A stretch of 64,000 bases of DNA from Oscillospiraceae bacterium (lineage in GTDB: Bacteria > Bacillota > Clostridia > Oscillospirales > Ruminococcaceae), in NCBI GenBank assembly GCA_016291435.1, contig JAEEXH010000001.1, positions 59,661 through 123,660 on the forward strand. The letters are read 5' to 3'. Below, piece after piece: positions 1,540 through 39,976 of the stretch. Within the stretch, counting starts at the first letter, position 1. Each line of letters opens with the position of its first letter. The notes under the pieces are model-generated. The model had not been told where the DNA came from. It did not search any database and saw nothing but the letters and a program-made list of their open reading frames with translations. A program made the translations under genes and the position numbers.

Positions 1540-3624
1540 TTACGAGGATGCCGTGATGCTGAGCCAATGCACAAAATCGAGGAAATGCAGCTGCGTCACG
1601 CCGCTTTCCGCCAGCGCTGACGGCAGAAGGAAGACCGCCATCGCAATCAGGAGCGCCGTTTCCGGCGTGCGGGAGAAGCGGCTGATCTGCACCGTGCCGC
1701 CCGCGATGAGCAGCGCCGCACAGTATTGCAGCACAAGCTGTACGGTGATCACTGTTTTCAGCGAGACCGATACAGGAATCCATTGCAGCAGCTCCATGCT
1801 CTGTGCAGGTGCTTCGGGCATGGAGAACCCGACATCCTGCTGCAAACGGACAAGGTAAATGCCGTGGATGGCAGCCGCGGCGAGCGCCGTGAGGAGCATG
1901 ACCCAGAGCCATGCCGCCGTCCGGCGGTGCCCTCTGCCGCGCTTTGTCGCCCTGAGAAGCATCTCGGTGTCATACTGATTGTCATAGGCGTGCAGGCTGC
2001 GGAACATGAAGATCAGGAAGAGCAGCAAAATCATGCAGCCGCGGCGGATGGACGCATTCTCGCGGAAGAGAAGCTGATAGGAATTCTGCTGGATGAACCA
2101 CGCGGGCAGACCCGTGCGTGCGGTGTAATCCGCGAGCTTTTGCAGGGCATCCTGCAAGGCGGAGTAGAGGTTAAAATCAGATTGCAGCTTTTGCAGACGG
2201 TACTGCGCATTTGCAATCGCCTGCGGATCGCCGCCGCGTTCCATCAGCTTGTCGATGCGCGCCTGCTGCTGCTCGATCTGGTTTGCGAGTGTCTCCAGAC
2301 GGTTCGCGACATCCGTGCGCTTTTCCTCTGTCACCTCGCCTGCATACTGATCGTAGATCTGCTTGGATTCCTGCGAGACCCACACATAGAGATGCGTCTG
2401 CTGCCAGAGCGAGAAGCCGAGCAGCCCCGCAATCAGCAGCACGAGAAATCCGCGCTGTGCAATGAGGATCTTCCAGCCCTCGAAGCCAAAGAGCGTGCGC
2501 CGCCGCGTGAGCCTTGCGAATTTCTGCGCAAGGCGGTCGCCGAGCAGCTCCATCTTGCTGCCGAGCTTGCCCGGGCGGCAGTATCCGATCAGCACAAGGC
2601 AGAGCACCGTGAGAATCACGCAGAGCCCGCCGACTGTAATCAGCATATCCGTGCGGAAATTCGAGGGAAAGCCAAACCAGTTGAGATTGCTGTACTGCGT
2701 GAAGAACACATCTGCTTCGAGCGCCGCAAACACATTCAGGAACTTGAAATGCGAGAGCTTTGCCGTCGGGAGAATGAGCTTGTGCGTGAGGAAGCAGACT
2801 GCGATAACGGCAGCGGAAACCGACCATGCTGCCAGCGGATGGATCCGCGCCTGCATGAGCCACAGAAACAGCGCAAAGACTGTCACGGCAAGTGTTTTCA
2901 GCAGCGCCGCCGCAAGGAAATATCCTCCGACAGTGAGCCGCAGCGAGCAGAGCTGGAATTCCGGCACCGACTGCACTGCGCGTGTCATCACGGGGTCGCC
3001 GAGCACCGCACAGGCATAGGCGATATTCGTGCCGTAAAGCAGCAGCACCGAGAGCGCCGACATGATTACCACGGCGAGCGCCTGCCAGCCGCAGAGCGGG
3101 AGCCGTCCGCGCTTGGTCGTGCGGGTCAGCGCACCGACTGCCGTTTCCGTATCTGCCGCGAGCGAGAGCACCAGCAGAAGCGGCGCGATCAGCAGCAGAT
3201 AGTCGGTCACATCATAATCCTTGACGGCATTCACCGTGTCGTCGCATCCCGCACGGACCTTGATGCCCTCGAGCTTTGCGTAATCCTTTGCGGTTTTCTC
3301 AAGATTGCGCTGCACGAAGTCATCCTTCTTTGCGGCGAGCTTGCCGAGCACCGACTGTGTGCCCGACTGCGACTGCACATATTCGAGATACTGCGGATAG
3401 GTCTCATTGAGATATTTTTCTGTTGCGGCTTGTTTTTCGGCGGCGCGCTTTGCGTCATATTCGTCAAGGTCTGTGCCCCATGCCGCCATCTGCTGCCGCC
3501 ATCTTTCATCCTCCTGCCCGCGTGTGCGGCAGTAGCCCGCAAAGAGCGCGAGATTGCAGAGCGCGATCATCAGCAGGAGAAGAATGCGCTTGGGGTCACA
3601 GAGCAGGCGTCTCAGTTCATACAT
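1540..3624 (-). CDS. ABC-2-type transporter permease, internally duplicated (two halves, each with a TM, a coiled-coil loop and multiple TMs)
   Basis: 694 aa. The ATG at 3624 overlaps the ATPase stop by 8 nt. Two repeats of the pattern N-terminal TM, then a charged loop of about 120 aa, then a TKRGR motif, then about 5 TMs (LTRTTKRGRLPL and LLRATKRGRGHRR). Confidence 0.75.
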   Translation of the reverse strand: MYELRRLLCDPKRILLLLMIALCNLALFAGYCRTRGQEDERWRQQMAAWGTDLDEYDAKRAAEKQAATEKYLNETYPQYLEYVQSQSGTQSVLGKLAAKKDDFVQRNLEKTAKDYAKLEGIKVRAGCDDTVNAVKDYDVTDYLLLIAPLLLVLSLAADTETAVGALTRTTKRGRLPLCGWQALAVVIMSALSVLLLYGTNIAYACAVLGDPVMTRAVQSVPEFQLCSLRLTVGGYFLAAALLKTLAVTVFALFLWLMQARIHPLAAWSVSAAVIAVCFLTHKLILPTAKLSHFKFLNVFAALEADVFFTQYSNLNWFGFPSNFRTDMLITVGGLCVILTVLCLVLIGYCRPGKLGSKMELLGDRLAQKFARLTRRRTLFGFEGWKILIAQRGFLVLLIAGLLGFSLWQQTHLYVWVSQESKQIYDQYAGEVTEEKRTDVANRLETLANQIEQQQARIDKLMERGGDPQAIANAQYRLQKLQSDFNLYSALQDALQKLADYTARTGLPAWFIQQNSYQLLFRENASIRRGCMILLLFLIFMFRSLHAYDNQYDTEMLLRATKRGRGHRRTAAWLWVMLLTALAAAAIHGIYLVRLQQDVGFSMPEAPAQSMELLQWIPVSVSLKTVITVQLVLQYCAALLIAGGTVQISRFSRTPETALLIAMAVFLLPSALAESGVTQLHFLDFVHWLSITASS

Positions 3625-4501
3625 ACTGCCGGTTCCCCTTTAAGTAGAGATGACACACATCCTCAAGCGTGAGATTGTCTGTCACCGGGACGCAGCCCTC
3701 GGGCAGCGGGTCATCGGCAATGCGCAGGACAAAGCCGTCCCTGCGCTCCGCGATCTCGCCGGCGGGATATTCCGCCTGCTTTGCGCGGATCTCATCATAA
3801 GTACCGACAAACTCGCCGATCTTGCCCTCTGCGTTTTCGAGCAGCGCGTGCGGGGTATCGAAGGCAATGCGCTCGCCGCCGCGGATGAGCAGCACCTTCT
3901 TTGCGATGCAGGCAATGTCGCTGACAACATGCGTTGCGAGCAGGACAATGCGGTCACGCGCAAGCTCTGCGATGTCATTGCGGATGCGGATGCGCTCCTC
4001 GGGATCAAGGCCCGCAGTCGGCTCATCGAGAATGAGCACCTGCGGCTTGCCGAGCATCGAGGAAGCGAGCATGACGCGCTGCCGCATGCCGCCCGAGAAG
4101 GTGCCGATCTTCCTGTGTGCATGCTGCGAGAGGTTCACCGCCTCAAGCATCTCCTCGGTCTCCGTTTTGATGTCGCGGCGCTTCATGCCCTTCAGCGCGC
4201 CCATATAATAGAGGAAGCGGCGTGCGGTGAATTCGTCGTAGAGCCCCTGAAGCTGCGGCGTATAGCCGACCAGCTCCCGCCATTTTGCCCCCATCGTGAG
4301 GATCTCGGTGCCGTTCCAGAGGATCTCTCCCCCGGTGCGCTTCATGTGGTCGGTCATCAGCTTCATGAGCGTCGATTTGCCCGCGCCGTTTGCGCCGAGC
4401 AGACCCGTCACGCCCGGCTCAAGCGTAAAGCTCATGTCGCTGAGTGCCGTGAAGCTGCCGTATTTTTTCGTGAGATGTCTGATTTCCAGTTTGTTTGCCA
4501 T
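3617..4501 (-). CDS. ABC transporter ATP-binding protein
   Basis: Walker A GANGAGKST, signature FSGGMRQR and Walker B LILDEPTAGLD. I chose the ATG at 4501 (MANKLEIRHL) because it has the RBS AAGGAGAA upstream; the longer ORF extension back to 4648 lacks one. Confidence 0.92.
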   Translation of the reverse strand: MANKLEIRHLTKKYGSFTALSDMSFTLEPGVTGLLGANGAGKSTLMKLMTDHMKRTGGEILWNGTEILTMGAKWRELVGYTPQLQGLYDEFTARRFLYYMGALKGMKRRDIKTETEEMLEAVNLSQHAHRKIGTFSGGMRQRVMLASSMLGKPQVLILDEPTAGLDPEERIRIRNDIAELARDRIVLLATHVVSDIACIAKKVLLIRGGERIAFDTPHALLENAEGKIGEFVGTYDEIRAKQAEYPAGEIAERRDGFVLRIADDPLPEGCVPVTDNLTLEDVCHLYLKGNRQYV

Positions 4502-4539: not shown

Positions 4540-4582
4540 GCCCTCTGTATCTATATACAATCGGCGGGCAGGTTTTCGTGCA
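4540..4582 (-). promoter_or_regulatory. conserved upstream element of the ABC operon, near-identical to the element upstream of module 7 (22544-22586)
   Basis: Minus-strand reading: TGCACGAAAACCtGCCCgcCgaTTGTATATAgAtACAGAGGGC. At 22544-22586 it reads TGCACGAAAACCgCCCtcaCggTTGTATATAtAaCAGAGGGC. Both lie about 40 nt before an RBS and ATG. Confidence 0.5.
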
Positions 4583-4610: not shown

Positions 4611-5900
4611 TTATTTGTATACCGGGAGCCATTCCGCTTTGCCTGCAAGCAGATCGGATACGCTGCATTTCAGGCCGTCACGGAGCGGGTCGATGCCCTC
4701 CATGGGGTCTGCCGTGCGCTCCAGGAGGATGACCGTGAGCGTTTCGTCGTCAGAGAACATGTGCAAGAGCTGCATGTCCTCCGGGATTGCGATGCTGCCG
4801 CAGATCTGCATATCGGTACTGAGCAGCAGCACGCTGTTTTCTGCGCTTTCTGTGTAGAGGTAGGTACCGTCAAAGAGCATATGCTCCCAGCTGACATCGC
4901 CCGCCGCCTGCATATCAAGCGCTGTGTCGGTATCGGTGCCGGGGTCGCGCAGAAGCATCCGGGGATTCCCTGCCGAGGCATCTATCCGGATGAAGCGCTC
5001 CGCAGAGGGTGCGATCGCGGGGATATTCCCGCCAAGATAGGTCTCTGCTTCGCCGGTCAGCAGGCTGACACGGTGAATGCCGTCGCCGCTGCGGGGCTGC
5101 TTTGGCTGCCAGAAGTAAAGATCATCGCCGCTGCCCCAGAGGGTAGTCGGTTCGGTGAGTTTGCCAGGTCTGCCGGCGGGCGGCATTTCCTCGCAAACGA
5201 CAAACTGCCGCTTTTCTCTCGGGTCATAGCCGATGACCGCATAGCCCCTGCGCGAACAGTCTGCCTGTGAACCGACGATTGTGTTGTCCTGAAAATCGGG
5301 ATCATCGAGGATGCTGATGAGTGCATACAGGCAGCCGCGGTGTACGCAGAAGTCGGTCACATCCGCGGCGGTATAGGGCATTTCCCAGTATGCCAGCTCC
5401 TCGATGCCGGTGCCGTCCGGCGCATAAGAAAGGAGTACGGGAAAAGAAAAGTCAAAGTTTCCGTTTTTCTTATCCGCAAAGGAATAGAGCGTGCCGTCCG
5501 CAGAGAGGAGCCATGTCCGGCGGTATGTGTCCGCTGAGGCTTCGCAGAATGCGCTGCCGTCGTGCAGACAGTTTGCACGGGCGCAGAGCGGAACCGCCGT
5601 GCCGCTTCTGTCGCAGAACTGATAAAGCGTCTGTCCGCTGCCGTCATATTCGTCGGTGCGGTAGTAAATGCCGTCTGCCGTCTCCGCGATGAGCGGCATC
5701 GGTTCATAGATGCTCCTGACGCGCGCAGAGGGATTATCCTTCTGCGCGGTCAGGGTCGGAGCGGCATAGCCTTCATCGGTGATGTGCTTTTCCGGCAAAG
5801 CGGCGCTGCTTTCTTTCAAGGGCTGCCCGTCCGAAGCCTCTGCGCAGGCAGTGAGCGTGCAGCAGAGCAGGAGGAGAGAAACACACACAGAGCGTTTCAT
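4611..5900 (-). CDS. lipoprotein paralog (P1) of the C-x4-C-x-H-x5-C ectodomain family; lacks the anti-sigma-like N-terminus
   Basis: 429 aa. The signal peptide has a lipobox (MKRSVCVSLLLLCCTLTAC). It contains PLCARANCLHDGSAFCEAS, LLSYAPDGTGIEELA, HRGCLY and a C-terminal SDLLAGKAEW, as in the other paralogs. RBS GAGGAGGG; only 12 nt separate it from the P2 stop. Confidence 0.85.
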   Translation of the reverse strand: MKRSVCVSLLLLCCTLTACAEASDGQPLKESSAALPEKHITDEGYAAPTLTAQKDNPSARVRSIYEPMPLIAETADGIYYRTDEYDGSGQTLYQFCDRSGTAVPLCARANCLHDGSAFCEASADTYRRTWLLSADGTLYSFADKKNGNFDFSFPVLLSYAPDGTGIEELAYWEMPYTAADVTDFCVHRGCLYALISILDDPDFQDNTIVGSQADCSRRGYAVIGYDPREKRQFVVCEEMPPAGRPGKLTEPTTLWGSGDDLYFWQPKQPRSGDGIHRVSLLTGEAETYLGGNIPAIAPSAERFIRIDASAGNPRMLLRDPGTDTDTALDMQAAGDVSWEHMLFDGTYLYTESAENSVLLLSTDMQICGSIAIPEDMQLLHMFSDDETLTVILLERTADPMEGIDPLRDGLKCSVSDLLAGKAEWLPVYK

Positions 5901-5912
5901 GCGGTGCCCTCC

Positions 5913-7553
5913 TCAGTGATAAATGATCTGCATATTATCGTCAATATGTGCTGCCTTGAGCGTAATATCGGAGACCTGAAGGAATTTCTCCCAGTCCTCC
6001 GAAGCGCTGCCCTTTCCGGCGAGCAGATCGCTGACACGGATGCGGTAAAGATAATCGTTCGGGTCCATCGTTTCGATGTCGCTTCTCCACTGCGCTTCAT
6101 ATTCTCCGTTTTCCAGCTGCGTGTGCGTCACCAGATGTTCGGAATTGCGCTGCATCACATACAGATAATCCCCGCGCAGAAAGCTGTCTGTCTGAGATTC
6201 CATGAAATCCGGCGCCGCGACCGTCTGCACAACACGGCAGTCATAATCACAGAGATACAGCACAAAGTTCGGATCTTCCCCCTCTGCCGGGGTCGAGACA
6301 AACAGCAGATAATCGTCATTCACCGAATAGTCATCCCAGTTCGGGTGTCCCTTGATCCCGGTTCTGTCCAGACGGGTCTCCTCGCCCGTGAACAGGTCAA
6401 GGCGCGTGAGCTTTGTGCCGTTTATGTCGCTGTCAAGCACGAAGCAGGCGTCCTTGCCGAACTGGATATTTGCGTCCATCGCCTGTTTGAGCGTCTTTAT
6501 CTCGAAGCTGTGCAGATCGAGCTGCTTGATGCTGCCGAGGATCAGGCTGTCGCCGTATCCCGCGATCATCCCGTAGGTGCCGCAGTCCCTCGATTCATCC
6601 GGCTCCGGCATGTTTATCGCAAGAATGCCGCCCTTGCCGGTCGCGAGCTCATAGCAGACGATCGCCGAGCCGCGGCAGCACGGCGAGCCTGCAACATCAC
6701 GGTTGGTCGCGTCCAGACCGACAGAGGCAAAGAGACAGCCGCGGTAAAGGATCACATCCACCACAGATGCGGCATATGTTTCATACGGGAATGAGAACCG
6801 CATGAGCTCCTCAATGCGGGTGCCGTCATTTGCATAGCGCAGAACCAGCGGCCCCCCGCCCCAGGAGCCGTCCTCATTGAGCGGCTGGGTGATCATATAG
6901 AGCTGATCGTCATAGCTGATGAAACGCCCCGGTGCATAGGCTTTCGTCGATGCCACGCAGTAGGGATTGCCGTCGTGCAGGCAGTTTGCCCGGGCGCAGA
7001 GCGGCACGCATTCGCCGGTCTCCTTGTCCTGATAATAATAGCAGCTGTGCTCGTTCTGCGCGCGCTGCGGAAAGCTCTCGGTGTTGTCCGGGTCATAGTT
7101 CAGCTCATACGTATCCTGCATGTAGTAAAGGCCGTCCGAGGTCTCTGCAAACCATGCCATCTCGTCATAGCGATAGCGCTGTCCGCCGAGATGATACGGC
7201 GCTGCCGTGCGCGTGTCATCCGTGAGACGGAGCGCCTCCGGCTGCTCCTGCACGCTGACAACTGCCGGTTCATTGCTGCTGCCGCGGTCAAAGATATTGC
7301 CGCCCTGCGAGCCGCGCATTGCGACGGCTGCCGCGATGCCGCCCGCGCCGAGCACTGCCGCCGTGATCGCGGCACCGATCGCGATTTTTCCGATTTTCCG
7401 TTTGTTTTCCCGCTTTTCCATTGTGCGTTTCCCTTTCCGGGATGCTGCTTCGGCACGCTGCTCCCGCACATAGTCCGCGATCATGTCATAATACCTGCGG
7501 TCTGCGTTCTTCACAGCGCGGCGGATCCGTTCCTCCGTGAGCTTCACAGCCAT
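5913..7553 (-). CDS. single-pass membrane sensor paralog P2 (putative anti-sigma of module 1)
   Basis: 546 aa. N-terminal ADRRYYDM motif, TM AAVLGAGGIAAAVAMRG and ectodomain PLCARANCLHDGNPYCVAS. The ATG at 7553 overlaps the sigma stop by 10 nt. Confidence 0.85.
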   Translation of the reverse strand: MAVKLTEERIRRAVKNADRRYYDMIADYVREQRAEAASRKGKRTMEKRENKRKIGKIAIGAAITAAVLGAGGIAAAVAMRGSQGGNIFDRGSSNEPAVVSVQEQPEALRLTDDTRTAAPYHLGGQRYRYDEMAWFAETSDGLYYMQDTYELNYDPDNTESFPQRAQNEHSCYYYQDKETGECVPLCARANCLHDGNPYCVASTKAYAPGRFISYDDQLYMITQPLNEDGSWGGGPLVLRYANDGTRIEELMRFSFPYETYAASVVDVILYRGCLFASVGLDATNRDVAGSPCCRGSAIVCYELATGKGGILAINMPEPDESRDCGTYGMIAGYGDSLILGSIKQLDLHSFEIKTLKQAMDANIQFGKDACFVLDSDINGTKLTRLDLFTGEETRLDRTGIKGHPNWDDYSVNDDYLLFVSTPAEGEDPNFVLYLCDYDCRVVQTVAAPDFMESQTDSFLRGDYLYVMQRNSEHLVTHTQLENGEYEAQWRSDIETMDPNDYLYRIRVSDLLAGKGSASEDWEKFLQVSDITLKAAHIDDNMQIIYH

Positions 7554-8104
7554 CCCTCCTCACTCAAGAATTTCCGCAGCTTTTTGCGGGTGCGCATCAG
7601 CGTGACGGTCACCCGGCTCTGCGAGATGCCGAAGGCTTCGGCGATCTCCCGCGTGCTGCGGTCGTTTCCGTAGTAATGCACAAAGATCATGACAGTCATC
7701 TTCGGGAGCGTCTTCAGAAACCGCCCGACTGCTTCATCCAGAAGCCGCTCCTCCATGAGCTGCTCGATGGAATCGCCTGCCGGCTCCCTGCCGCGGCTAA
7801 GATCGTGGAGCGGGATCTCCGCCTGTCCGCCGCCGCGCTTCTTTGCCTGCTTCTGCTCCGCACGGTTGAGCGAAAGCCGCTTCACCGTCGTGTGCAGATA
7901 GGCGCCGAAGCTCTTCGGGGCTGCGGGCGGGACTGCGCTCCAGACTTGCAGCAGCGCGTCGTTCCAGACCTCCTCTGCGTCCTGCTCGCTGTGCAGAATG
8001 CGCATCGCGAGCTTTTTGCAGGCGCCGCCGTACTGCGCCGTCAGCGCCCTGAGCGCCGATTCATCGCGCTTTTGCAGCAGCGTTAAGATCTGCCTGTCCG
8101 TCAT
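7544..8104 (-). CDS. ECF-type sigma-70 family factor (module 1)
   Basis: 186 aa. Region 2-like DAEEVWNDALLQVWSAVPP...YLHTTVKRLSLNR and a region 4 HTH REIAEAFGISQSRVTVTLMRTRKKLRKFL. Confidence 0.88.
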   Translation of the reverse strand: MTDRQILTLLQKRDESALRALTAQYGGACKKLAMRILHSEQDAEEVWNDALLQVWSAVPPAAPKSFGAYLHTTVKRLSLNRAEQKQAKKRGGGQAEIPLHDLSRGREPAGDSIEQLMEERLLDEAVGRFLKTLPKMTVMIFVHYYGNDRSTREIAEAFGISQSRVTVTLMRTRKKLRKFLSEEGWL

Positions 8105-8191
8105 TGTTCATCACTTCCCTGCGTGTTTGAGTGGGAAAGGCGTTCCGGAACCGTCATTCCCCCGTCATATGAGTGTCACTCTGTATTAGTA

Positions 8192-8219
8192 TGACAGGAA
8201 AAAATGCGGTTTCGCTACA
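8192..8219 (-). promoter_or_regulatory. ECF-type promoter-like motif TGTAGC-N16-CTGTCA (module 1)
   Basis: Minus-strand reading: TGTAGC gaaaccgcattttttc CTGTCA, followed by tactaatACAGAG. The position and motif are shared with modules 2-6. Confidence 0.5.
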
Positions 8220-8260
8220 CCTGCGGGGAAAATTTTTATTGCGGGCAATCCATTCCTCCT

Positions 8261-9949
8261 TTATTCGAGCGGCCCGTATTCATGATCCCAGCCGTTCTCA
8301 TAGAATGTGCCGTCATCGGGATTGTAACAGTAGTTGTGGATCAGCGTACACTGCGGCTCCCATTCCGGGCTGCCGCTCAGCAGTGAATCAATGCTGCACC
8401 GGCAGAGCACGCCGGGCGTCTCGCCGTCGCCGACATAGAGCACGCCTTCCGCATTCTTCTCGATCGCGTTGTAATCCAGCGCATAGAGGAAGCCGTCGCG
8501 CACCGACAGCTTGCGCAGCGCATGCCGGAAGCGATAGCTGACCGTTTGCAGAAGCTCACGGCTCGCAAGGTCGTAGACGCTGATGCGGTATTCCGCCTTC
8601 TGTACGCCGTCCTCCTTCATCACAACACGGCTCAGGCCGTAGAATCTGCTGCCGTCTGTCGTATAATCCTCAAATGCCGCATCCAAGAGCTTTTCGGATT
8701 CGCCGGTGTCAAGATTCATTTTCATGGTGTAGGATACATTCGGCGTGCGCACCTGATAAATCAAAGTGCTGCCGCACATCGTAAAGCCCGTCATGCCGTT
8801 ATTGGCACCCGAGACAACCTGCCTGTGCGCGCCTGTTTTCAGATCTATCGCAAAAATGCCGTTGCTGTTTTTCGCCTGCCAGTCGCCGCCGCCGATCTGA
8901 TAGCAGAGCCAGTCGCCGCCCGCACAGAGCATGACAGGCGTCGGATATATGATGTTCGACTCCGCATCCGGCATCGAGCGGTAAAGCTCCAGCGTCTTGC
9001 CGGTCGCGATCTCATAGCCGAAGATGGCGTAGCCTGTGTTGGATGTGTTCTCATCGCTCGGATTCTCGGGGTTGAAATCCGCCAGACGGTGATGCAGCTC
9101 TGCCATCCACCAGACATAGCCGCGGTGAATGACAGGCGTGCCGATGGGCATGGAGCATTCCGCCTTGATGCGGGCAAGCTCCGTGATGCCGGTGCCGTCG
9201 GGCGCATAGGAGAGCAGATAGGTGTATTCGCTGTTATACTGATCACGGTCTCCGGCTGCGGCATAGAGCACGCCGTCATAGGCAACAAGCCCGTGCTGCA
9301 CATATTTTTCCACAGACGCTTCGCAGAAATCATCGCCGTAATGCAGACAGTTCGGTCTTGCACAGAGCGGCACCTCCCCGCCGGATTCCGCATCGCTGTA
9401 TCCGATTATGCTTATGCCGCTTCGGTGGTCGGCATAAAACTTCGTGATCAGCTCATCCTGTTCGGTTTCGTCAAGCTGCGCGAGCGTATCATATGCGAAT
9501 GTGTTGACGATCGAGTGATACCAGCCGGTATCGGAGGCGGTGTACCAGAAACTGTAATTCTCAAGCGGACTGTGGAACCGCTGTGCCGAGTTGTCCCACT
9601 GCTGATCGGTGAGATGCAGCCCGAGTGTGTTCTGCTCTGTCTGCCCCGAAAGCTCCGCGGCACGGCTGCTGCCGTCAGACTGATTGTTTCCGCCGTTTGT
9701 GCCGCGCATTGCAACGATTGCCGCCATGCCGCCGCCGCCCAGCACTGCCGCCGCGAGCACCCCCGCGAACACATATTTCCCGATCCTCCGCCGCTTTTCT
9801 CTGCGCTGTTCTTTTTCCATATCAAATGCCTTTCCCTTCTGCCTCTGCGCGAACTCCGAAGGAGAGCAAAGTCTTGCGGAAAGCTCCGCAAAATACCGCT
9901 GATCGGCACGCGGCAAAGCATGCAGAAAGGCGCGTTCCTTTTTGTTCAC
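8261..9949 (-). CDS. single-pass membrane sensor paralog P3 (putative anti-sigma of module 2)
   Basis: 562 aa. The GTG start at 9949 overlaps the sigma stop (GTGA). TM AAAVLGGGGMAAIVAMRG and ectodomain PLCARPNCLHYGDDFCEAS. Confidence 0.85.
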   Translation of the reverse strand: MNKKERAFLHALPRADQRYFAELSARLCSPSEFAQRQKGKAFDMEKEQRREKRRRIGKYVFAGVLAAAVLGGGGMAAIVAMRGTNGGNNQSDGSSRAAELSGQTEQNTLGLHLTDQQWDNSAQRFHSPLENYSFWYTASDTGWYHSIVNTFAYDTLAQLDETEQDELITKFYADHRSGISIIGYSDAESGGEVPLCARPNCLHYGDDFCEASVEKYVQHGLVAYDGVLYAAAGDRDQYNSEYTYLLSYAPDGTGITELARIKAECSMPIGTPVIHRGYVWWMAELHHRLADFNPENPSDENTSNTGYAIFGYEIATGKTLELYRSMPDAESNIIYPTPVMLCAGGDWLCYQIGGGDWQAKNSNGIFAIDLKTGAHRQVVSGANNGMTGFTMCGSTLIYQVRTPNVSYTMKMNLDTGESEKLLDAAFEDYTTDGSRFYGLSRVVMKEDGVQKAEYRISVYDLASRELLQTVSYRFRHALRKLSVRDGFLYALDYNAIEKNAEGVLYVGDGETPGVLCRCSIDSLLSGSPEWEPQCTLIHNYCYNPDDGTFYENGWDHEYGPLE

Positions 9950-10515
9950 AATAAGCCCTCCCCGTTCAGAAATTTTCGCAGCTTAAGGCGTGTGCGCATC
10001 AGCGTGACAGCCGCCTTGCTGTAAGTGATCGCAAAGGCATCCGCGATCTCCCCGACCGACTTCCCGTTCACATAGCGGTGCAGGAAGATGGTGCGGGCTT
10101 CGGGTGTGAGCGTTGACAGAAAGCGGTTGACCGCCTCTGTCATCAGTGCTTCATCCATGATCTGCTCAACGGAGACCTTTGCGGGCTGCTGCCGCGCCGC
10201 TGCATCGTCGAGTGAAAGCTCCGGCAGACCGCCGCCGCGCTTTTTCGCGCGCTGTTTCTCGCGTTTCTGATATGCGTGCCGCCTGAGAACGGTGCAGAGA
10301 TAGGCAAAAAGATCCTCCGGCTCAGCGGGCGGAATCGCATTCCAGAGGCTCAGGAGCGTATCGTTCCAGACCTCTTTCGCGTCCTCCTCGGAGTGCAGGA
10401 TATTTGCCGCAATGTTTCTGCCGGCGCCGCCGTATTTTTTCGATACGGCTCGGAGCGCTTTTTCGTCCCGCGCTGCAAACAGAGCGAGAATCTGCTTGTC
10501 TTCCGTTGCAATCAC
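9946..10515 (-). CDS. ECF-type sigma-70 family factor (module 2)
   Basis: 189 aa paralog of 7544-8104 (EEDAKEVWNDTLLSLWNAIPP...; HTH GEIADAFAITYSKAAVTLMRTRLKLRKFL). The start is GTG at 10515 or the adjacent ATT; see findings. Confidence 0.85.
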   Translation of the reverse strand: MIATEDKQILALFAARDEKALRAVSKKYGGAGRNIAANILHSEEDAKEVWNDTLLSLWNAIPPAEPEDLFAYLCTVLRRHAYQKREKQRAKKRGGGLPELSLDDAAARQQPAKVSVEQIMDEALMTEAVNRFLSTLTPEARTIFLHRYVNGKSVGEIADAFAITYSKAAVTLMRTRLKLRKFLNGEGLL

Positions 10516-10552
10516 TTCCTTTCCATGAGATAGAGACCGTCTCTATTTCACC

Positions 10553-10580
10553 AGATCGGAACCGGGCTCTGTATATTACA
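10553..10580 (-). promoter_or_regulatory. ECF-type promoter-like motif TGTAAT-N16-CGATCT (module 2)
   Basis: Minus-strand reading: TGTAAT atacagagcccggttc CGATCT ggtgaaATAGAG. Confidence 0.5.
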
Positions 10581-10626
10581 CTTGATATGAAAAAAATTTC
10601 TGCGTGTACAATGCACCTGCCTTTCC

Positions 10627-12261
10627 TTATTTGAGCGACACCTCCGAGAGCGTCAGCACGGTCTCGCAGTCTGAAGCATCCGTATCTCCGCGCAGCACAT
10701 CCGCCGTCGGGATGCGGCAGAGACAGGCGTTTGCGTCCGCGTCCGGATTGAAGTCGCCTTCCCTGATCAGACCGTCCTCATAGATAGTGTCGTAGCGAAG
10801 ATCGAAGCCGTCCGTCACAAACCAGAGATACCCGTCACGGACAAAATACCGCAGGATTTTGCCGCGCGATGTAAGGTCGATGCGTGCAAGCGTTCTGCCC
10901 GCCGCATCCCCGACCGCGATCCCGTGCGCATGCGTATCTTCCCCGTAATCTGACCACTGCCAGAAGGTATACTCCCCCTGCTTCAGCACAAACGGGAACG
11001 CCTCGCCCGCATCGCCGAGCTTCTGCCGCATCCCCTTCGTGATCTCGCCGGTTTCGTAATCGCAGAACTTATACGCCGGTTCAATGCCTGCGTCATCCCT
11101 GTAATAAATGCCGTCTGTACCCGCAAAGAAGTCCCCCGCGTACAGACGCACATTTTCCTCGAGCCGTTCGCAGGCAAATGTGCCGAGATCCATGCGGTAA
11201 ATACCGCTGTGTGTGCCTGTTTCGAGCGCATAGAGCGCACTGCCTTTGCACCAGATCTGCTCCGGGCTGCCGTATACCGTATGCTCGCCTTCCGGCGGGA
11301 GATTCAGATACAGCGTATACGCCTGCTTTTCCGCAAAGTCATAGCAGACAACTGCCCAGCCGCCGCGCACGGCTTTGGTGACGGTGCCGACATCCGGCTG
11401 CTCCGTGACCGCCTGCTCTGCAACAGAGAGCGCCGCAAAGAGATACCCTTTGTGGATGCAGAAATCCTGCACCGCGATCTGTGCATTCGGCAGGTCGCTT
11501 GTGAACTGCACAAGCTCCTCGATTCCGGTACCGTCAGGCGCATAGGAGAGCAGGAAGCAGCCCTTGCTGTCTGCGCCTCTGCCCTTTTCCGCAACGGTAT
11601 AAAGCCCGCCGTCCCAGCTCAGCAGATGATGTGTCTCATAGGCTTTTGTCGATGCCTCGCAGTATTCATTGCCGTCGTGCAGACAGTTTGCCCTTGCACA
11701 GAGCGGCACGGTCTCGCCGGTCGCCTTGTCCTTGTAGCAGAAATAATCTGCCGTGATCTCCGTCTGTTCTTCCGGCGGGGCATATTTGTCCCTCCTGCGG
11801 AAGAACCAGCCGTTCTCTGTTTCCGTGACATACGGATTCACGCTGATGCCGCGCAGACTGTCTGCAATGTAATAATCCTGCTCCGGCATGAGCCGCGCGG
11901 TGAAATCGTCATCGCCGCCCTCCGTGAGACGGAGCGCCGGGGTATCGACCCCTTCCGTGATATTTTTCAGTTTGACACCGACGGTGTTCCGCTGAAAGAT
12001 GCTGCCGCCCTGCGTGCCGCGCATTGCAACGATTGCCGCCATGCCGCCCGCGCCGAGCACTGCCGCCGCGATCAAACCCGCGGCCGCGATTTTTCCGATT
12101 CTGCCGATTTTCCCTCTGGTTTCCCGCTGCTTCATAAGACGCTGTCCTTTCCGGGCAGCCGTTTCACTGCGGTGCCGTTCGATGCGGCGCGTCACCATAT
12201 CAAAATAGCGGCGGTCTGCACGCTCGACAGCTTGCAGAAAATCCTTTTCCGTGATCTTCAC
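10627..12261 (-). CDS. single-pass membrane sensor paralog P4 (putative anti-sigma of module 3)
   Basis: 544 aa. ADRRYFDM, TM AAAVLGAGGMAAIVAMRG and PLCARANCLHDGNEYCEAS (codons 11659-11700). 4-nt overlap with the sigma stop. Confidence 0.85.
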   Translation of the reverse strand: MKITEKDFLQAVERADRRYFDMVTRRIERHRSETAARKGQRLMKQRETRGKIGRIGKIAAAGLIAAAVLGAGGMAAIVAMRGTQGGSIFQRNTVGVKLKNITEGVDTPALRLTEGGDDDFTARLMPEQDYYIADSLRGISVNPYVTETENGWFFRRRDKYAPPEEQTEITADYFCYKDKATGETVPLCARANCLHDGNEYCEASTKAYETHHLLSWDGGLYTVAEKGRGADSKGCFLLSYAPDGTGIEELVQFTSDLPNAQIAVQDFCIHKGYLFAALSVAEQAVTEQPDVGTVTKAVRGGWAVVCYDFAEKQAYTLYLNLPPEGEHTVYGSPEQIWCKGSALYALETGTHSGIYRMDLGTFACERLEENVRLYAGDFFAGTDGIYYRDDAGIEPAYKFCDYETGEITKGMRQKLGDAGEAFPFVLKQGEYTFWQWSDYGEDTHAHGIAVGDAAGRTLARIDLTSRGKILRYFVRDGYLWFVTDGFDLRYDTIYEDGLIREGDFNPDADANACLCRIPTADVLRGDTDASDCETVLTLSEVSLK

Positions 12262-12824
12262 AGCCAGCCCTCCTCATTCAGATATTGCCGCAGTTTTTTT
12301 CGGACGCGCATGAGCGTCACGGCGACCTTGCTGCGCGAGATGCCGAACGCCTTTGCGATTTCCGTAAAGCTGCGGTGGTTTCCGTAATGATGCACAAAGA
12401 TCGTCAGGGTCTCCTCAGGGAGCGTTGAGAGAAAGCGGTTGACCGCCTCCTCCAGCATCCGCGCCTCCATCAGCTCCTCGACCGTTTTGCCGCCCGATGC
12501 GGGATGACGGTGTTCGGGGAGTGCGTCAAGCGAGGTCTCCGCTCTGCCGCCGCCGCGCTTTATCGCCTGCCGCTTTTCGAGACGCTTCAGCGCAAGATGC
12601 CGGACGGCCGTGTGCAGATAGGCGCCGAGATCATCGGGCTCTGCGGGCGGGACAGCGTTCCAGAGATTCAGCAGGGCGTCGTTCCAGACCTCCTCTGCAT
12701 CCTCATCCGATTGCAGGATATTCCGTGCAATGCGCAGCCCCATCGGGCGATATGCCGCGGTGAGTGCCGCGAGCGCTGATTCATCGCGCCTTTGCAGCAG
12801 GGCGAGGATCTGCCTGTCGTTCAT
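12258..12824 (-). CDS. ECF-type sigma-70 family factor (module 3)
   Basis: I chose the ATG at 12824 (MNDRQILALLQ) because it has GGAAG 8 nt upstream. The track ORF extension to 12962 runs through the promoter motif and is rejected. Confidence 0.85.
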   Translation of the reverse strand: MNDRQILALLQRRDESALAALTAAYRPMGLRIARNILQSDEDAEEVWNDALLNLWNAVPPAEPDDLGAYLHTAVRHLALKRLEKRQAIKRGGGRAETSLDALPEHRHPASGGKTVEELMEARMLEEAVNRFLSTLPEETLTIFVHHYGNHRSFTEIAKAFGISRSKVAVTLMRVRKKLRQYLNEEGWL

Positions 12825-12899
12825 TGTGATCACTTCCATTCCGTTTGTGTGCGCGGTTCCGGAGCCGCAGCACTGTGCAGAGAATTCTCTGTACTGGTA

Positions 12900-12927
12900 T
12901 GACCGGAAACAGATCTGAATGGTTACA
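12900..12927 (-). promoter_or_regulatory. ECF-type promoter-like motif TGTAAC-N16-CGGTCA (module 3)
   Basis: Minus-strand reading: TGTAAC cattcagatctgtttc CGGTCA taccagtACAGAG. Confidence 0.5.
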
Positions 12928-12984
12928 CATGCGGGAAAAAAATTTTTGTTTGGAAAGATCATCTCCTTTCAGATGATGCTGTAT

Positions 12985-14613
12985 TCAGTTCAGCAGTGCG
13001 CTGAGCCGCTGAATCTTCTCGATCGTGCAGACCGTTTCCCAGTCGGCGCTGCCCGCTTTGAGATCAGCCGTTTTGCAGCGAACAAGACAGGTGTCCGGGT
13101 CGTCCGCCGAGATCATGCCGCCGCTGCGGTAAGAAGGTCCCATCAGCGCACAGATGTCGCCGCCGATGAGCCGCAGCGTGAGGAAATCGCGGTCTGCGGG
13201 GCCTTCCAGCGTCCCCTGAAGCTGCATATCCATGTCGTAGAGATAAACCGTGCAGTGATCGTCAGCGGTGCCTGCCTGCTTGCAGATCGCGACATGCTTT
13301 CCGTCCGAAACCGTGATGCCGCTCGGGATATCGCTGTATATTTTGCTTTCGCCGGTCTCGGTGTCCAGAATGCAGAACTGATACTGATTCACCTTGACCT
13401 GCTTGCGGCAGAGGATATATTTGCCTGCCGTACCCTCACGGGCATAGCTTGCTGTGCCGCTCAGCAGCGTCTTCACCTCGCCGCTGCGCAGATCGAGCCC
13501 GTAGAGACCGACGGTGTAGGTCGCAGGCCAGCCGGATTCGCTTGAGAAATAGAGCATATCGCCGCCTGCCGAAAGAAACCGCGGCGGCTCCTCATAGCCC
13601 TTGGAGTTGTTCTCCTTCGGCATGACACTGAGCACCTCTGTCGTTTTGCCAGTCGCGATCTCGTAGGCATAGACCGCATAGCCTGTGCCCTTATGGGGAT
13701 TGTTGAAATCAAATTCGCTCTCGCTTGGCGAGGCGCCGTTCCGCACACGGTACAGGCAAAACACATAGCCGCGGTGGATGATCATATCCAGCGGGTCTGC
13801 CTCGCCCTTGCTGAACACCGCAAGCTCCGTGATGCCCGTGCCGTCAAGCGCATAGGAGAGCAGGCAGCGGCGGTAATTCTCGGGGTCGTCCTCATCGGTC
13901 GAGCGCGCCGCACAATAGAGCACGCCGTCATAATAAAGCGGTTTCCCGCGGTAATACTTTGCTGTTGTCGCCTCGCAGTATTCATTGCCGTCATGCAGGC
14001 AGTTCGGGTGCGCACAGAGCGGCACATCCTCGCCGGTCTCGCTGTCATAATACCAGATGATGTCATTGCGCGGCTTGGAAGTGTTATATGCGCTTTCCGC
14101 CGCATCCATCCTTTCATTCTCCGCGTCGGTATAGGAATTCTCCCCGCCTCCGCGCAGATCGTCGATCAGTTCAAAATTGATCTCATGATACCAGCCTGTA
14201 TCCGATGCCGTGAACCACATCTGGTCTGCGATATAGGAGTCGCCGGTATTGATCTCGCACCACTCCCCGCCGTCGGTGAGATTGAGATGCAGCGCTGCGG
14301 TGCCGTCTGTCTGCGAGGATGTGACCTCTGCGGCACGGCTGCTGCCGTCAGACTGATTGTTTCCGCCCTGCGTGCCGCGCATTGCGACGATTGCCGCCAT
14401 GCCGCCCGCGCCGAGCACTGCCGCCGCGATCACACCCGCGGCCGCGATTTTTCCGATTTTTCCAAGATGCTTTCCCACTTTGGATGCCTTCCCTTTCCGG
14501 GATGCCGCAAACGCATCCGGGTCGGCGCGGCGCCTTGCGATCTCCGCATAGAAGCGCCGGTCTGCATCCTTCATGAGCCGCAGAAATTCCTGCTCCCTGT
14601 GTTTCACAGCCAT
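12985..14613 (-). CDS. single-pass membrane sensor paralog P5 (putative anti-sigma of module 4)
   Basis: 542 aa. ADRRFYAE, TM AAAVLGAGGMAAIVAMRG and PLCAHPNCLHDGNEYCEAT. 10-nt overlap with the sigma stop. Confidence 0.85.
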   Translation of the reverse strand: MAVKHREQEFLRLMKDADRRFYAEIARRRADPDAFAASRKGKASKVGKHLGKIGKIAAAGVIAAAVLGAGGMAAIVAMRGTQGGNNQSDGSSRAAEVTSSQTDGTAALHLNLTDGGEWCEINTGDSYIADQMWFTASDTGWYHEINFELIDDLRGGGENSYTDAENERMDAAESAYNTSKPRNDIIWYYDSETGEDVPLCAHPNCLHDGNEYCEATTAKYYRGKPLYYDGVLYCAARSTDEDDPENYRRCLLSYALDGTGITELAVFSKGEADPLDMIIHRGYVFCLYRVRNGASPSESEFDFNNPHKGTGYAVYAYEIATGKTTEVLSVMPKENNSKGYEEPPRFLSAGGDMLYFSSESGWPATYTVGLYGLDLRSGEVKTLLSGTASYAREGTAGKYILCRKQVKVNQYQFCILDTETGESKIYSDIPSGITVSDGKHVAICKQAGTADDHCTVYLYDMDMQLQGTLEGPADRDFLTLRLIGGDICALMGPSYRSGGMISADDPDTCLVRCKTADLKAGSADWETVCTIEKIQRLSALLN

Positions 14614-15173
14614 CCCTCCTCGTGCATTGCCTTCCGAAGCCTGATGCGCGTCCGCATCAGGGTGACAGCAACCTTGCTCCGCGAAATGTGAAATTCCGCC
14701 GCGATCTCTGAGACGGTCTTTCCCGTGCCGTAATGCTCCAGAAAAATCGTTCTGGCATCGGGTGAGAGCGCCGTGAGAAAGCGGTTGACGGAATCGAGCA
14801 TCATGGCGCGCTCCATGAGCTCCTCCACATCATTGCTCTGCGGGTGGTGCTTTTCGGAGATTGCTTCCAGTGAGAGCTCCGGCTGACCGCCGCCGCGCTT
14901 CTGCGTGTTTTTCTTCTCGAGCCTTTGCAGCGAGAGCCGCCGCACGGCGGTGCAGAGATAGGCAAAGAGATCGTCGGGCTTTGCGGGCGGGATCGCATTC
15001 CAGAGATGCAGCAGGGCATCGTTCCAGATTTCCTCTGCGTCCGCCTCTGAGTGCAGTATATCCCTTGCGATTTTGCGCCCGGCTCTGCCGTACTGCTTTG
15101 TCAGCAGATGCAGCACCTGTTCGTCGCGCTGCTCGAGCATTCTGATCAAGCGGCTGTCTTCCGTTGTCATCAC
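14604..15173 (-). CDS. ECF-type sigma-70 family factor (module 4)
   Basis: 189 aa paralog. GTG at 15173 is followed directly by ATG at 15170; the ATG is the more likely start given GAAAGG 5 nt upstream. Confidence 0.85.
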   Translation of the reverse strand: MMTTEDSRLIRMLEQRDEQVLHLLTKQYGRAGRKIARDILHSEADAEEIWNDALLHLWNAIPPAKPDDLFAYLCTAVRRLSLQRLEKKNTQKRGGGQPELSLEAISEKHHPQSNDVEELMERAMMLDSVNRFLTALSPDARTIFLEHYGTGKTVSEIAAEFHISRSKVAVTLMRTRIRLRKAMHEEGWL

Positions 15174-15200
15174 TTCCTTTCGAGGTCCCTCTGTTTACTG

Positions 15201-15228
15201 GGATCGGAAAAGCAGGGATTTGTTTACA
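15201..15228 (-). promoter_or_regulatory. ECF-type promoter-like motif TGTAAA-N16-CGATCC (module 4)
   Basis: Minus-strand reading: TGTAAA caaatccctgcttttc CGATCC cagtaaACAGAGGG. Confidence 0.5.
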
Positions 15229-15267
15229 CCTCCGGATATATTTTTATATTTTATCTTTTTCAGATAT

Positions 15268-15451
15268 GAATTCGCAATGCGCAATTCGCAGTGCGCAATG
15301 AAGGTGTCGGCTTGCGCCGACGAATTTGGATTGAGCTCTGCCCAACCCTGACAAACAGATTACTTACGCCAAGGGGCTTGGGCGTCAGCCCCATTCATAA
15401 TCATCGCGAAGCGATACCGCCATTGCGCATTTCGCATTGCAAATTGCGCAC
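15268..15451. repeat. MITE-like element with GCGCAATG-type terminal inverted repeats and internal mini-hairpins
   Basis: Left end gaattcgcaatgcgcaattcgcagtgcgcaatg; right end cattgcgcatttcgcattgcaaattgcgc. The core (gtcggcttgcgccgac ... gcccc attcataatcatcgcgaagcgatac) is the reverse complement of the core at 60791-60963. Confidence 0.8.
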
Positions 15452-15459
15452 TGATTCTG

Positions 15460-17097
15460 TCAGTTTTCGGGTTCAGGGTGCTCCGCACGCCATGCCTCCA
15501 TGTCGATCTCGTGCATCTTCACCAGCGTACACGCCTGCTTCCATTCCGCATTGCCCGCAAGCAGCGCCTCCCGGCTGCATGACAGCACGGCGGCATCCTT
15601 TGCGATGATGCCGGATGTCTCCTGGATTTGCCCCTGATACTCCGTAATGACGCCGTCCGTGATGACTGTGACCGTGTCGCCGAACACCATGATTCTCCGC
15701 ACGCACTGATGATCGGGCACGCGCAGGGAGGCGACCTCCTTGCCCGTCATATCCAGCACGCGCACAGCATAGCTCATAACCTCCCTGCTTTTATCCGCCT
15801 CAGCCGAGTAGATATAGCTTCCGTCCGTCACAGAGTACGAGAGCGAGCCGTTATACAGCGTTTCCGTTTCGCCGGTCGCCGCATCGGTTGATTTTACCTT
15901 GTCCGGCGTGGCATCAAAATCCGTGTAATAGACTTTGCTGCCGGATACGGCAAAAACAGCCTCCTTATCCACGAGCTGTTTATGGCTGCCGTCTGTGAGA
16001 TTCAGCGCATAGATGCCTTGTTTGTTGGTATTCTGCCATGTGCCGTTTCCTATGGAATAGAACAGATAATCGCCGCCTGCCGAAAAAGTCCACGGTGCAT
16101 CTTGCCTGATACCGGAGCCTGCCTTCGGCATACAGCTATAGATCTCCGTCGCCTTGCCCGTGGCAATCTCATAGCCGAGAATCGCATAGCCGCTGTCGCT
16201 TTTTGTCACAAAGCCCGCCGCATCATATTCCAGCGGATTGATTTTCATGAAAATGCAGAACACATAGCCGCGGTGAACAACCGGTGTGCAGATCACATCG
16301 GTATACTGCTCGCCGAATGTGCAGAGCTCGGTGATGCCCGTGCCGTCCGGCGCATAGGAAAGCAGCACGGCGGTTGTCTTTTTCGGTACTGTTCCATCCG
16401 ATTTCAGTTCATCGAAATTCAGCGTTTTCAGCGCGGAAGCGTAGATCACGCCGTCCACACAGACCGGATCCGAGCGGCGGTAGGTATTCGAGGTCGCTTC
16501 GCAGTATATGCTGCCGTCATGCAGGCAGTTCGGTCTTGCGCAGAGCGGCACATCCTCGCCGGTTTCGCCGTCGCAGAACATGAGCGGCAGGTTTTCCAGA
16601 TAAAGCTTCGTCGGATACAACTCCTGCTGTGCTTCAAAGAACTCCTCGCCGAGCTCGCCGTCTGAGGGCGCTGCCGTCTCATCATAGCTGTGATACCAGC
16701 CGTTTTCGGTCGGGAACGCACAGCCGTAACCCGTGCTGCCATAGGAATCCGACTGCATGGCATTCCACTGCTGATCGGTGAGATTGAGACTGAGCGCTTC
16801 CGCGTGCTGCTCCTCGACCATACTGCGCATGTCGCGGGATTCCTCGCTGACGATGCCGAAGCCGCCGCGCATCGCGACCGCTGCCGCAATGCCGCCTCCG
16901 CCGACGAGTGCCGCTGCGAGCACCACGCCCCACGCAAGCTTCTTGTGATGTTTTTTCTCCGCAGATTTCATTTTGCGTGTTCCTCCTGCTCCGTATTTCG
17001 CTGCGAAAGCCTGAGGATCCGCTGCCCGGTCTGCGGCCATTTTGAAGAAACGGCGGTCTGCGCCTTTGACCGCACGCAAAAATTCCTTTTCCGTCAT
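15460..17097 (-). CDS. single-pass membrane sensor paralog P6 (putative anti-sigma of module 5)
   Basis: 545 aa. ADRRFFKM, TM LAAALVGGGGIAAAVAMRG and PLCARPNCLHDGSIYCEAT. ATGA overlap with the sigma stop. Confidence 0.85.
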   Translation of the reverse strand: MTEKEFLRAVKGADRRFFKMAADRAADPQAFAAKYGAGGTRKMKSAEKKHHKKLAWGVVLAAALVGGGGIAAAVAMRGGFGIVSEESRDMRSMVEEQHAEALSLNLTDQQWNAMQSDSYGSTGYGCAFPTENGWYHSYDETAAPSDGELGEEFFEAQQELYPTKLYLENLPLMFCDGETGEDVPLCARPNCLHDGSIYCEATSNTYRRSDPVCVDGVIYASALKTLNFDELKSDGTVPKKTTAVLLSYAPDGTGITELCTFGEQYTDVICTPVVHRGYVFCIFMKINPLEYDAAGFVTKSDSGYAILGYEIATGKATEIYSCMPKAGSGIRQDAPWTFSAGGDYLFYSIGNGTWQNTNKQGIYALNLTDGSHKQLVDKEAVFAVSGSKVYYTDFDATPDKVKSTDAATGETETLYNGSLSYSVTDGSYIYSAEADKSREVMSYAVRVLDMTGKEVASLRVPDHQCVRRIMVFGDTVTVITDGVITEYQGQIQETSGIIAKDAAVLSCSREALLAGNAEWKQACTLVKMHEIDMEAWRAEHPEPEN

Positions 17098-17663
17098 AGC
17101 CAGCCCTCCTCATTCAGATACTTTTTCAGCTTGATGCGGGTGCGCATCAGACTGAGCGCAGCCTTGTTCCGTGAAATTTGGTACATGTCTGCGATCTCCG
17201 CGATGCTTTTGCCGTTGCCGTAGCGCTGCACAAAGATCGTGCAGGCATCGGGCGAAAGCGACTGCAAAAAGCGGTTGACCGCATCGTTCAGGAAAATCGC
17301 GCCGACCGTTTCCTCGACCGCATTGCGTGCGGGCTGGGCGTGCTCGGGGAGATTTTCGAGCGACAGTGCCGCCTGTCCGCCGCCGCGCTTCTGCGCGTTC
17401 CTCTGATCGAGCCGTTTATAGCAAAGATTGCGCACAACGGTCGTGAGATAGGCGTAGAAATTATCGGGGCGTGCGGGCGGGATTGCATTCCAGACCTGCA
17501 TCAGTGCATCGTTTAAGACCTCCTCCGCGTCCTGCTCGGAATGGAGCAGATGCGCGGCGAGATTTCTGCATGCCCTGCCGTATTGCTTCGAGACCGCAGC
17601 GAGGGCAGCTTCATCGCGTGCAAAGAACAGATCGAGGATCTGCCTGTCGTTCAATGTGATCAC
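17094..17663 (-). CDS. ECF-type sigma-70 family factor (module 5)
   Basis: 189 aa paralog. The track start is GTG at 17663. By alignment with module 3 (ATG AAC GAC AGG CAG), the TTG at 17654 (TTG AAC GAC AGG CAG) is an alternative start. Confidence 0.82.
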   Translation of the reverse strand: MITLNDRQILDLFFARDEAALAAVSKQYGRACRNLAAHLLHSEQDAEEVLNDALMQVWNAIPPARPDNFYAYLTTVVRNLCYKRLDQRNAQKRGGGQAALSLENLPEHAQPARNAVEETVGAIFLNDAVNRFLQSLSPDACTIFVQRYGNGKSIAEIADMYQISRNKAALSLMRTRIKLKKYLNEEGWL

Positions 17664-39975: not shown

Positions 39976-39976
39976 G

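Follow-up and report, generated by a model that had tools for sequence, protein, structure and literature searches.

The window, by which we mean the whole stretch of 64,000 nucleotides analysed here, derives from an Oscillospiraceae bacterium and carries on its minus strand, in this order, the genes for P8, sigma157, six sigma/P modules, p429 and the ATPase and permease of an ABC transporter. The array measures about 16 kb, and the sigma157 operon lies approximately 16-18 kb from the transporter. The genes are as follows.

20758..22512, minus strand: P8, 584 aa, a divergent member of the P family and, by its position, a presumed anti-sigma/sensor protein
20275..20748, minus strand: sigma157, a 157-aa ECF sigma factor (Pfam Sigma70_r2 and Sigma70_r4_2)
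4611..20261, minus strand: the intervening array, consisting of p429 and six ECF-sigma/P-protein modules
7544-8104, 9946-10515, 12258-12824, 14604-15173, 17094-17663 and 19482-20048, minus strand: the six array sigma genes
4611..5900, minus strand: p429, a lipoprotein-type paralogue of the P-family ectodomain, with a Cys-containing signal peptide
3617..4501, minus strand: ABC transporter ATPase, 294 aa, PF00005, probably of the DrrA/GldA/NodI-like (ABC-2) type
1540..3624, minus strand: ABC transporter permease, 694 aa, the last gene of its operon
236-1156, plus strand: the gene after the permease, convergent to it

Because the gene beyond the permease is convergent, the ABC operon consists of two genes. 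The ATPase finds its best NCBIfam matches in GldA, DrrA and NodI, with E values of 1e-58 to 1e-39, all of them below the family-specific cut-offs. The permease is built of two membrane domains around a coiled-coil insert and has no direct match in Pfam, in NCBIfam or among solved structures. Its distant homologues P0141 and P0143 match PF12698 (ABC2_membrane_3); P0141, which is 24% identical to the permease (E 1e-42), does so with 39 bits against a cut-off of 31.6. Given the closest ATPase models and these distant permease homologues, the label "ABC-2", which a preliminary description of this DNA had attached to the transporter, is plausible.

Sigma157 comprises sigma2 and sigma4 domains only, scores 58.4 bits against TIGR02937 (cut-off 42.9) and has its best matches among solved structures in SigE, SigH and SigW. 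It is the sole member of its type in the window and shows no BLAST similarity to the six window sigma factors of 186-189 aa. In the AlphaFold2 model of P8 (pLDDT 74, pTM 0.73), a pair of short cytoplasmic helices at the N-terminus is followed by a single transmembrane helix (residues ~58-82) and then by an extracellular beta-propeller, which structure comparison likens to Kelch, TolB and GH74-like propellers. As paralogues, the P proteins, P8 among them, show 28-36% identity; the values between P8 and the others are 28-31%. Searches of Pfam and NCBIfam, anti-sigma domains included, returned no match for P8, and no anti-sigma match was found among solved structures; its role as the anti-sigma/sensor of sigma157 is presumed from gene position. 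Where the ectodomain begins, all P proteins carry an invariant Cys/His motif, (P)LCxxxNCxHxGxxxC (residues ~197-216 in P8), which could be a metal or disulfide site. Divergence from the array-bearing relative L012 is uneven: the ATPase is 98.9% identical (3617-4501 against L012 12379-12917), sigma157 82% and P8 39% (20758-22512 against L012 730-2433). This pattern is that of P sensors which, judged from such identities, either evolve very fast or are exchanged.

In the array, each sigma gene (186-189 aa) precedes the gene for one P protein of 540-562 aa, the modules span 20048-5913, and pairwise identity among the six sigma factors is 50-66%. Two open reading frames, 12258-12962 (234 aa) and 19482-20261 (259 aa), are too long at the 5' end; judged by alignment to the paralogues, the two genes start at 12824 and 20048, and these corrected starts open the intergenic regions that hold the corresponding promoters. 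At the transporter end, p429 is without the cytoplasmic and transmembrane part of the P proteins and varies among strains, being absent in L062 and L063. No intrinsic terminator was detected in the window, either between P546/p429 and the ABC genes or between modules, and read-through from the module-1 promoter may add to transporter expression and could account for much of it. The literature on ECF arrays in Oscillospiraceae or Ruminococcaceae yielded nothing specific.

Several repeats accompany these genes. A dispersed intergenic repeat containing GGTATCGCTTCGCGATGATTTATAATGGGGAC occurs at 1148-1237, 1360-1408, 44953-45042 and 60823-60871, often flanked by GCGCAATGCGAAAT-like runs, with degenerate copies between the sigma modules at ~15300-15440 and ~20130-20260, and at 39835-39993 a 17-nt unit, ATACCGGGGTATGCACA, is repeated in tandem about nine times. 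Furthermore, four independent short-read assemblies (L001, L003, L007 and L009) break at ~22687, 175 nt upstream of P8 and inside AAAAGGCTTGACCGAAAC; the shared break suggests a repeat boundary.

Two copies of a bipartite element

An element of two blocks separated by a spacer occurs upstream of P8 and again upstream of the ATPase gene. Its parts are given below with their predicted roles.

22556..22586, minus strand: predicted autoregulatory promoter of the P8-sigma157 operon; weight-matrix rank 1, core shared with 12 homologous operons
22586-22575, minus strand: -35 block of the P8 copy, TGCACGAAAACC
22574-22565, minus strand: 10-nt spacer of the P8 copy, GCCCTCACGG
22564-22556, minus strand: -10 block of the P8 copy, TTGTATATA, followed by TAAC
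22551-22545, minus strand: AGAGGGC after the P8 copy
22544..22551, minus strand: AGAGGGCG block, where transcription of the P8 operon is predicted to start
4552..4582, minus strand: predicted sigma157-dependent promoter of the ABC operon; weight-matrix rank 2
4582-4571, minus strand: -35 block of the ABC copy, TGCACGAAAACC
4570-4561, minus strand: 10-nt spacer of the ABC copy, TGCCCGCCGA
4560-4552, minus strand: -10 block of the ABC copy, TTGTATATA, followed by GATAC
4546-4540, minus strand: AGAGGGC at the predicted transcription start of the ABC operon, placed by ECF promoter geometry
~4514-4508, minus strand: AAGGAGA, ribosome-binding site of the ABC operon (ATG at 4501; predicted leader about 45 nt)

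Both copies read TGCACGAAAACC-N10-TTGTATATA in equal register, followed by 4-5 bases and AGAGGGC; in the P8 copy the AGAGGGCG block is followed by ACCTC, which creates a small GAGG/CCTC palindrome. The preliminary description had placed near-identical elements at 4540-4582 and 22544-22586 on the minus strand, and its coordinates and letters proved correct. The indel that it assumed after the first block is unneeded, since both blocks align in register without gaps; the sole length difference is 1 nt between TTGTATATA and AGAG. Over the ungapped alignment 25 of 31 positions are identical, with the blocks matching at 21/21 positions and the spacer at 4/10. All six mismatches thus fall in the 10-nt spacer, for which the chance probability is C(10,6)/C(31,6) = 2.9e-4. 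Block identity combined with spacer divergence is the pattern expected when selection acts on -35/-10 contacts. Beyond the element the two upstream regions are no longer similar. From the end of the element to the ATG there are 38 nt for the ABC copy (ATG at 4501) and 31 nt for the P8 copy (ATG at 22512), with an AGGAG-type ribosome-binding site between element and ATG at both sites, in agreement with the "about 40 nt" first reported.

The element is rare in the window. The pattern TGMACGAA-N14-TTGTNTRTA with up to two mismatches matches these two copies only (0.03 expected), and a third copy was sought at this stringency throughout the window and not found. Even the minimal core TGCAC-N17-TTGT has two matches against 0.31 expected, and, apart from the two copies themselves, no ungapped stretch of the 64 kb matches either 31-mer at more than 20/31 positions. 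A housekeeping sigma-70 promoter at the ABC site was considered and rejected, as the consensus is not matched and the interval from TGCAC to TATATA needs a 20-nt spacer; no sigma-70-type promoter was found upstream of the ABC genes.

The array modules have promoter-like elements of their own:

8219-8167, 10580-10529, 12927-12875, 15228-15177, 17725-17672 and 20150-20099, minus strand: six paralogous module promoters, TGTAAN-N18-(G/A)TCNNN-N6-7-AGAG

Compared with the sequence shared by the P8 and ABC sites, TGCACG-N17-TGTATA-N6-7-AGAG, these have equal geometry, whereas the -35 and -10 letters differ. Two letter sets in one geometry fit two ECF sigma types with separate promoter specificities, and the distinctness of the module motifs makes the exact match between the P8 and ABC copies more informative. 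The earlier statement that no other module has the element therefore stands for these letters; it does not extend to the geometry, which all six other sigma genes share. In the six module promoters, AGAG is immediately followed by a short palindrome with covarying arms, for example GAGTG-A-CACTC, AGAGAC-G-GTCTCT, CAGAGAA/TTCTCTG, AGAGG-GACG-CCTCT and GAGGT/ACCTC, and in L012 GTGCAGAG-AGAC-CTCTGCAC. Palindrome-bearing promoters are also present in relatives, at positions 2928, 5225, 5318, 7661 and 10087 of L012 and 2207 and 6807 of L068; the palindrome is absent at three pattern matches outside intergenic promoter regions. It looks like a stem-loop at the 5' end of the transcript, or possibly a dimer-binding site.

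Conservation of the element and history of the operon

To examine the element beyond the window, homologues of sigma157 were collected, their loci were fetched, and the regions upstream of the operons were compared. This protein-anchored search yielded eight foreign sites with TG(C/A)AC-N17-TTGT in the register of the window copies and with variable spacers (L012, L014, L016, L017, L018, L019, L020 and L021; sigma identity 49-82%). In the orthologous sites GA(A/G)GGG stands 4-5 nt beyond the -10 block, at the distance that AGAGGGC has in the window, and each 20-kb orthologous locus has a single core, which invariably precedes the operon. The L020 operon starts with the sigma gene, and the motif stands immediately upstream of that gene. 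Additionally, metagenome contigs were scanned blindly at the DNA level for TGCACGAAAA-N12-TTGTNTRTA, with about 40 chance matches estimated beforehand. The scan returned 39 matches, four of them 60-90 nt upstream of sigma157 homologues (45-60% identity); the rest are mostly noise or unrelated families, such as a Bacteroidota-like AAATCTGCACGAAAAATGCAGATTT element, and no third target gene was found among the 39. The motif therefore precedes 12 foreign operons (eight protein-anchored and four blind; sigma identity 45-82%), in five of which the sigma gene comes first without a P-like leader gene. TG(C/A)AC-N17-TTGT is common to all 14 sites in a single register; their spacer columns are low in information. 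In the same-species contigs L001-L009 the regions upstream of P8 are almost identical and hence carry no information on motif conservation.

A weight matrix was built from the eight foreign sites only and used to rank 127,928 window positions. The P8 site came out on top, followed by the ABC site; when the closest relative was omitted from the matrix, the ABC site scored only slightly above the third-ranked position (12.5 against 11.4). A weak match at rank 7, TGCACGAAAAAC... at 63717-63753 on the plus strand near the window end, lacks a TTGT at the required spacing.

Conservation upstream of sigma operons is the usual ground for predicting ECF target motifs (PMC7826278), and as a rule ECF sigma factors control their own expression and share loci with their targets (PMC7826278). 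A motif that follows sigma157 homologues through differing contexts is the signature of an autoregulatory ECF promoter. We therefore read the element as a bipartite ECF-type promoter with the core TGCAC-N17-TTGT, most likely recognised by sigma157 for both autoregulation and control of the transporter, and assign this reading a probability of about 0.75. From the geometry, transcription probably starts approximately 6-10 nt downstream of the blocks, at AGAG. The autoregulation that the preliminary description had presumed for sigma157 thus gains comparative support from the 12 homologous operons, the five sigma-first operons among them.

The second proposal of that description, that sigma157 also drives the transporter, finds support in the second rank of the ABC site and in the arrangement of more distant relatives. 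In five other Oscillospiraceae (L014/L015, L016/L017, L018, L019 and L021), a sigma157 homologue (63-67% identity), the ATPase and the permease lie in one operon with the order P-like gene, sigma, P-like gene (a 76-aa ORF in L014), ATPase, permease. The ATPase gene begins after a gap of 6-24 nt, a single motif precedes the whole operon, and no array intervenes between the sigma homologue and the ABC genes. Relative to the window proteins, identity is 81-84% for the ATPases and 41-52% for the permeases. The single operon of these five relatives indicates that the sigma factor and the transporter once formed one transcription unit.

The ABC copy itself was found only in the window species (strains L061-L064, L066 and L067), where it is kept both with p429 (L061, L064 and L067) and without it (L062 and L063). 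These strains are too alike to provide evidence of purifying selection, and the sole signal is the confinement of differences between the two copies to the spacer. In the array-bearing L012, L068 and L069 a second copy upstream of the ABC genes is absent, and the ATPase gene starts 36-48 nt after the last P gene; the transporter there must accordingly be transcribed from upstream module promoters, which makes the second promoter lineage-specific and dispensable in relatives. A short contig, L065, encodes an identical ATPase and diverges over positions 1-65 exactly where the promoter copy is expected; either that strain lacks the copy, or the divergence is an artefact of the assembly end. In L014, L016-L019, L021 and L069 the operon is followed by a protein of 445-760 aa with no Pfam match and by an Rce1-like CPBP protease, with dockerin-bearing GDSL lipases or a GH43 enzyme encoded in the vicinity; in the window, the ABC genes adjoin none of these.

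These comparisons allow a mechanism and a history to be proposed. P8, as a single-pass membrane protein with an extracellular beta-propeller, would keep sigma157 in an inactive state; once a cue from outside the cell or from the envelope had set sigma157 free, RNA polymerase carrying it would start transcription at the P8 and ABC promoters. The first copy would drive the P8-sigma157 operon and so establish positive autoregulation, and the second would drive the two-gene ABC-2-type operon (4501-1540), such that the transporter would be induced together with the sigma/sensor pair. The ancestral state was, on this view, a single operon of P-like gene, sigma, P-like gene, ATPase and permease, between whose sigma157 and ABC genes the six sigma/P modules later came to lie. 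The second promoter copy would then keep, or restore, sigma157 control of the transporter in the window species.

Alternative explanations for the element

The element upstream of the ABC genes could instead be a relic of local duplication or rearrangement, for example one accompanying gain or loss of p429, in which case only the P8 copy would work and the transporter would be expressed mainly by read-through from module 1. Such a history would suit the occurrence of the ABC copy in one species only, its absence upstream of the ABC genes in L012, L068 and L069, and the lack of a terminator before these genes. However, blocks intact at 21 of 21 positions beside a spacer matching at 4 of 10 (p = 2.9e-4) do not form a pattern of decay, the copy is retained whether or not p429 is present, and it stands at a proper distance from a ribosome-binding site and an ATG. 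We consider a relic unlikely for these reasons. A promoter read by a different sigma factor encoded elsewhere, with sigma157 merely one gene of that regulon, would be compatible with the visible 64 kb of genome, given that the tie between sigma157 and the motif comes from sequence comparison. It is nevertheless very unlikely: the motif tracks sigma157 homologues with or without the array, a P-like first gene or the ABC genes; the sigma-70 consensus does not fit, owing to the 20-nt interval already noted; and the six other sigma factors of the window have a distinct motif of their own.

Folding of the element offers another account, in which the inverted repeat GCCC(TC)...(GA)GGGC with its AT-rich centre would act as the operator of a dimeric repressor or as a DNA or RNA leader hairpin. 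The P8 copy indeed folds stably (-18.4 kcal/mol, z = -3.3), whereas the ABC copy does no better than shuffled sequence (z = -0.4). Across the 14 sites, 63.3% of positions are paired against 63.0% after shuffling, 261 of 500 shuffles are at least as good, and there is no excess covariation. The conserved letters form two blocks and a free spacer, not a dyad, and no Rfam family is matched, which leaves this account highly improbable. Finally, other dispersed intergenic repeats in the window raise the prospect that the element is itself a repeat or a mobile-element fragment placed upstream of two genes by chance. Against this, there are only two copies in 64 kb, similarity ends at the element edges, and orthologous members of one gene family have the motif conserved upstream. 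Moreover, GCACGAAAAMC-N10-TTGTATAT had two matches across the genomes of 185,579 species, a collection that apparently does not include the source genome with both copies, and these matches lie at unrelated AT-rich loci with unrelated downstream sequence. A chance repeat is accordingly the explanation to which we give least credence, and a sigma157-dependent promoter remains the preferred reading of both copies.

Relation to known systems and significance

In autoregulated ECF regulons, the sigma/anti-sigma operon carries a group-specific -35/-10 motif that also stands before nearby targets (Staron et al. 2009; Casas-Pastor et al. 2021, PMC7826278). The sigma157 locus resembles such regulons in its two-block promoter, with the blocks about 17 nt apart and conserved ahead of the sigma operon across homologues, and in a sigma2/sigma4-only factor co-encoded with a membrane protein and presumed targets. 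It departs from the common ECF consensus, GGAAC...CGTC, in having the letters TGCAC...TTGT. A further difference is that the gene presumed to encode the anti-sigma factor precedes the sigma gene and specifies a beta-propeller protein of 530-590 aa without a known anti-sigma domain.

Two autoregulated ECF groups with an ABC transporter are the closest analogues. In the first, sigY-yxlCDEFG of B. subtilis (ECF31), the ABC transporter YxlFG is transcribed together with an ECF sigma factor that autoregulates (PMC4105308, PMC7826278). The ancestral arrangement seen in L014-L021 is similar: one operon, presumably autoregulated, contains the genes for an ECF sigma factor and for an ATPase and permease of probable ABC-2 type. 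In contrast to sigY, small YxlC/YxlD-like regulators at positions +1 and +2 are absent, the neighbours are large propeller proteins of the P family, and the window transporter lies about 16 kb away with its own promoter copy. The +1 gene after sigma157 is another sigma gene in the window and encodes a P-family protein of 574-678 aa, or a 76-aa ORF (L014), in relatives. ECF258, the second, is a Firmicutes group described as associated with ABC transporters (PMC7826278), and the sigma157 system shares with it both the phylum and a conserved neighbourhood with an ABC transporter; DUF4179, the feature of ECF258 anti-sigma factors, had no Pfam match in P8, P546, P540 or the scanned P-family protein of L016. 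Lacking YxlC/YxlD-like proteins and DUF4179, the system belongs to neither ECF31 nor ECF258, and no NCBIfam equivalog model was reached. It would work in the manner of these groups but is part of an undescribed sigma clade confined to uncultured Oscillospiraceae.

Another resemblance is to C. thermocellum, which has multiple SigI/RsgI pairs that are paralogous, bear extracellular sensor domains and use related but distinct promoters. Common to both are several paralogous pairs of sigma factor and membrane sensor, each with its own version of a common promoter, in one organism of a fibre-degrading community, and the parallel extends to the dockerin-bearing enzymes encoded beside related loci. 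In the present case, unlike SigI/RsgI, the sigma factors are of the ECF type, the sensors have no RsgI_N domain, and the modules stand in tandem.

An ECF sigma factor that autoregulates and drives a neighbouring transporter is textbook biology. The wiring proposed here would be that of an ordinary bacterial regulon, noticeable only because a 16-kb array splits an operon that is single in related species, and the gain is one of annotation and evolutionary detail, with no new mechanism, for a clade of rumen and gut Oscillospiraceae. It yields a concrete regulon prediction: one sigma factor, one promoter (TGCAC-N17-TTGT) and two transcription units. It would also provide a case of an array-split operon that was able to keep its original control through a second promoter copy.

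The preliminary description went further and took the transporter to be an output of the sensing array. Ancestrally the transporter is paired with the P8/sigma157 module in particular, and its standing as an output of the whole array is not obvious. The fast-diverging propeller modules always lie exactly between sigma157 and the highly conserved ABC genes, and on this basis the transporter might, as a tentative and rather doubtful suggestion, be a shared working part of the whole sensing array that works with all P-family sensors. If that were true, it could deliver or remove the sensed ligand, or take part in flux sensing of the BceAB kind; in the window species, it would then be controlled by sigma157 at a promoter of its own and also be reached by read-through from module 1. 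The locus would then represent an expandable, uncharacterised ECF/propeller/ABC signalling cassette in rumen and gut Oscillospiraceae.
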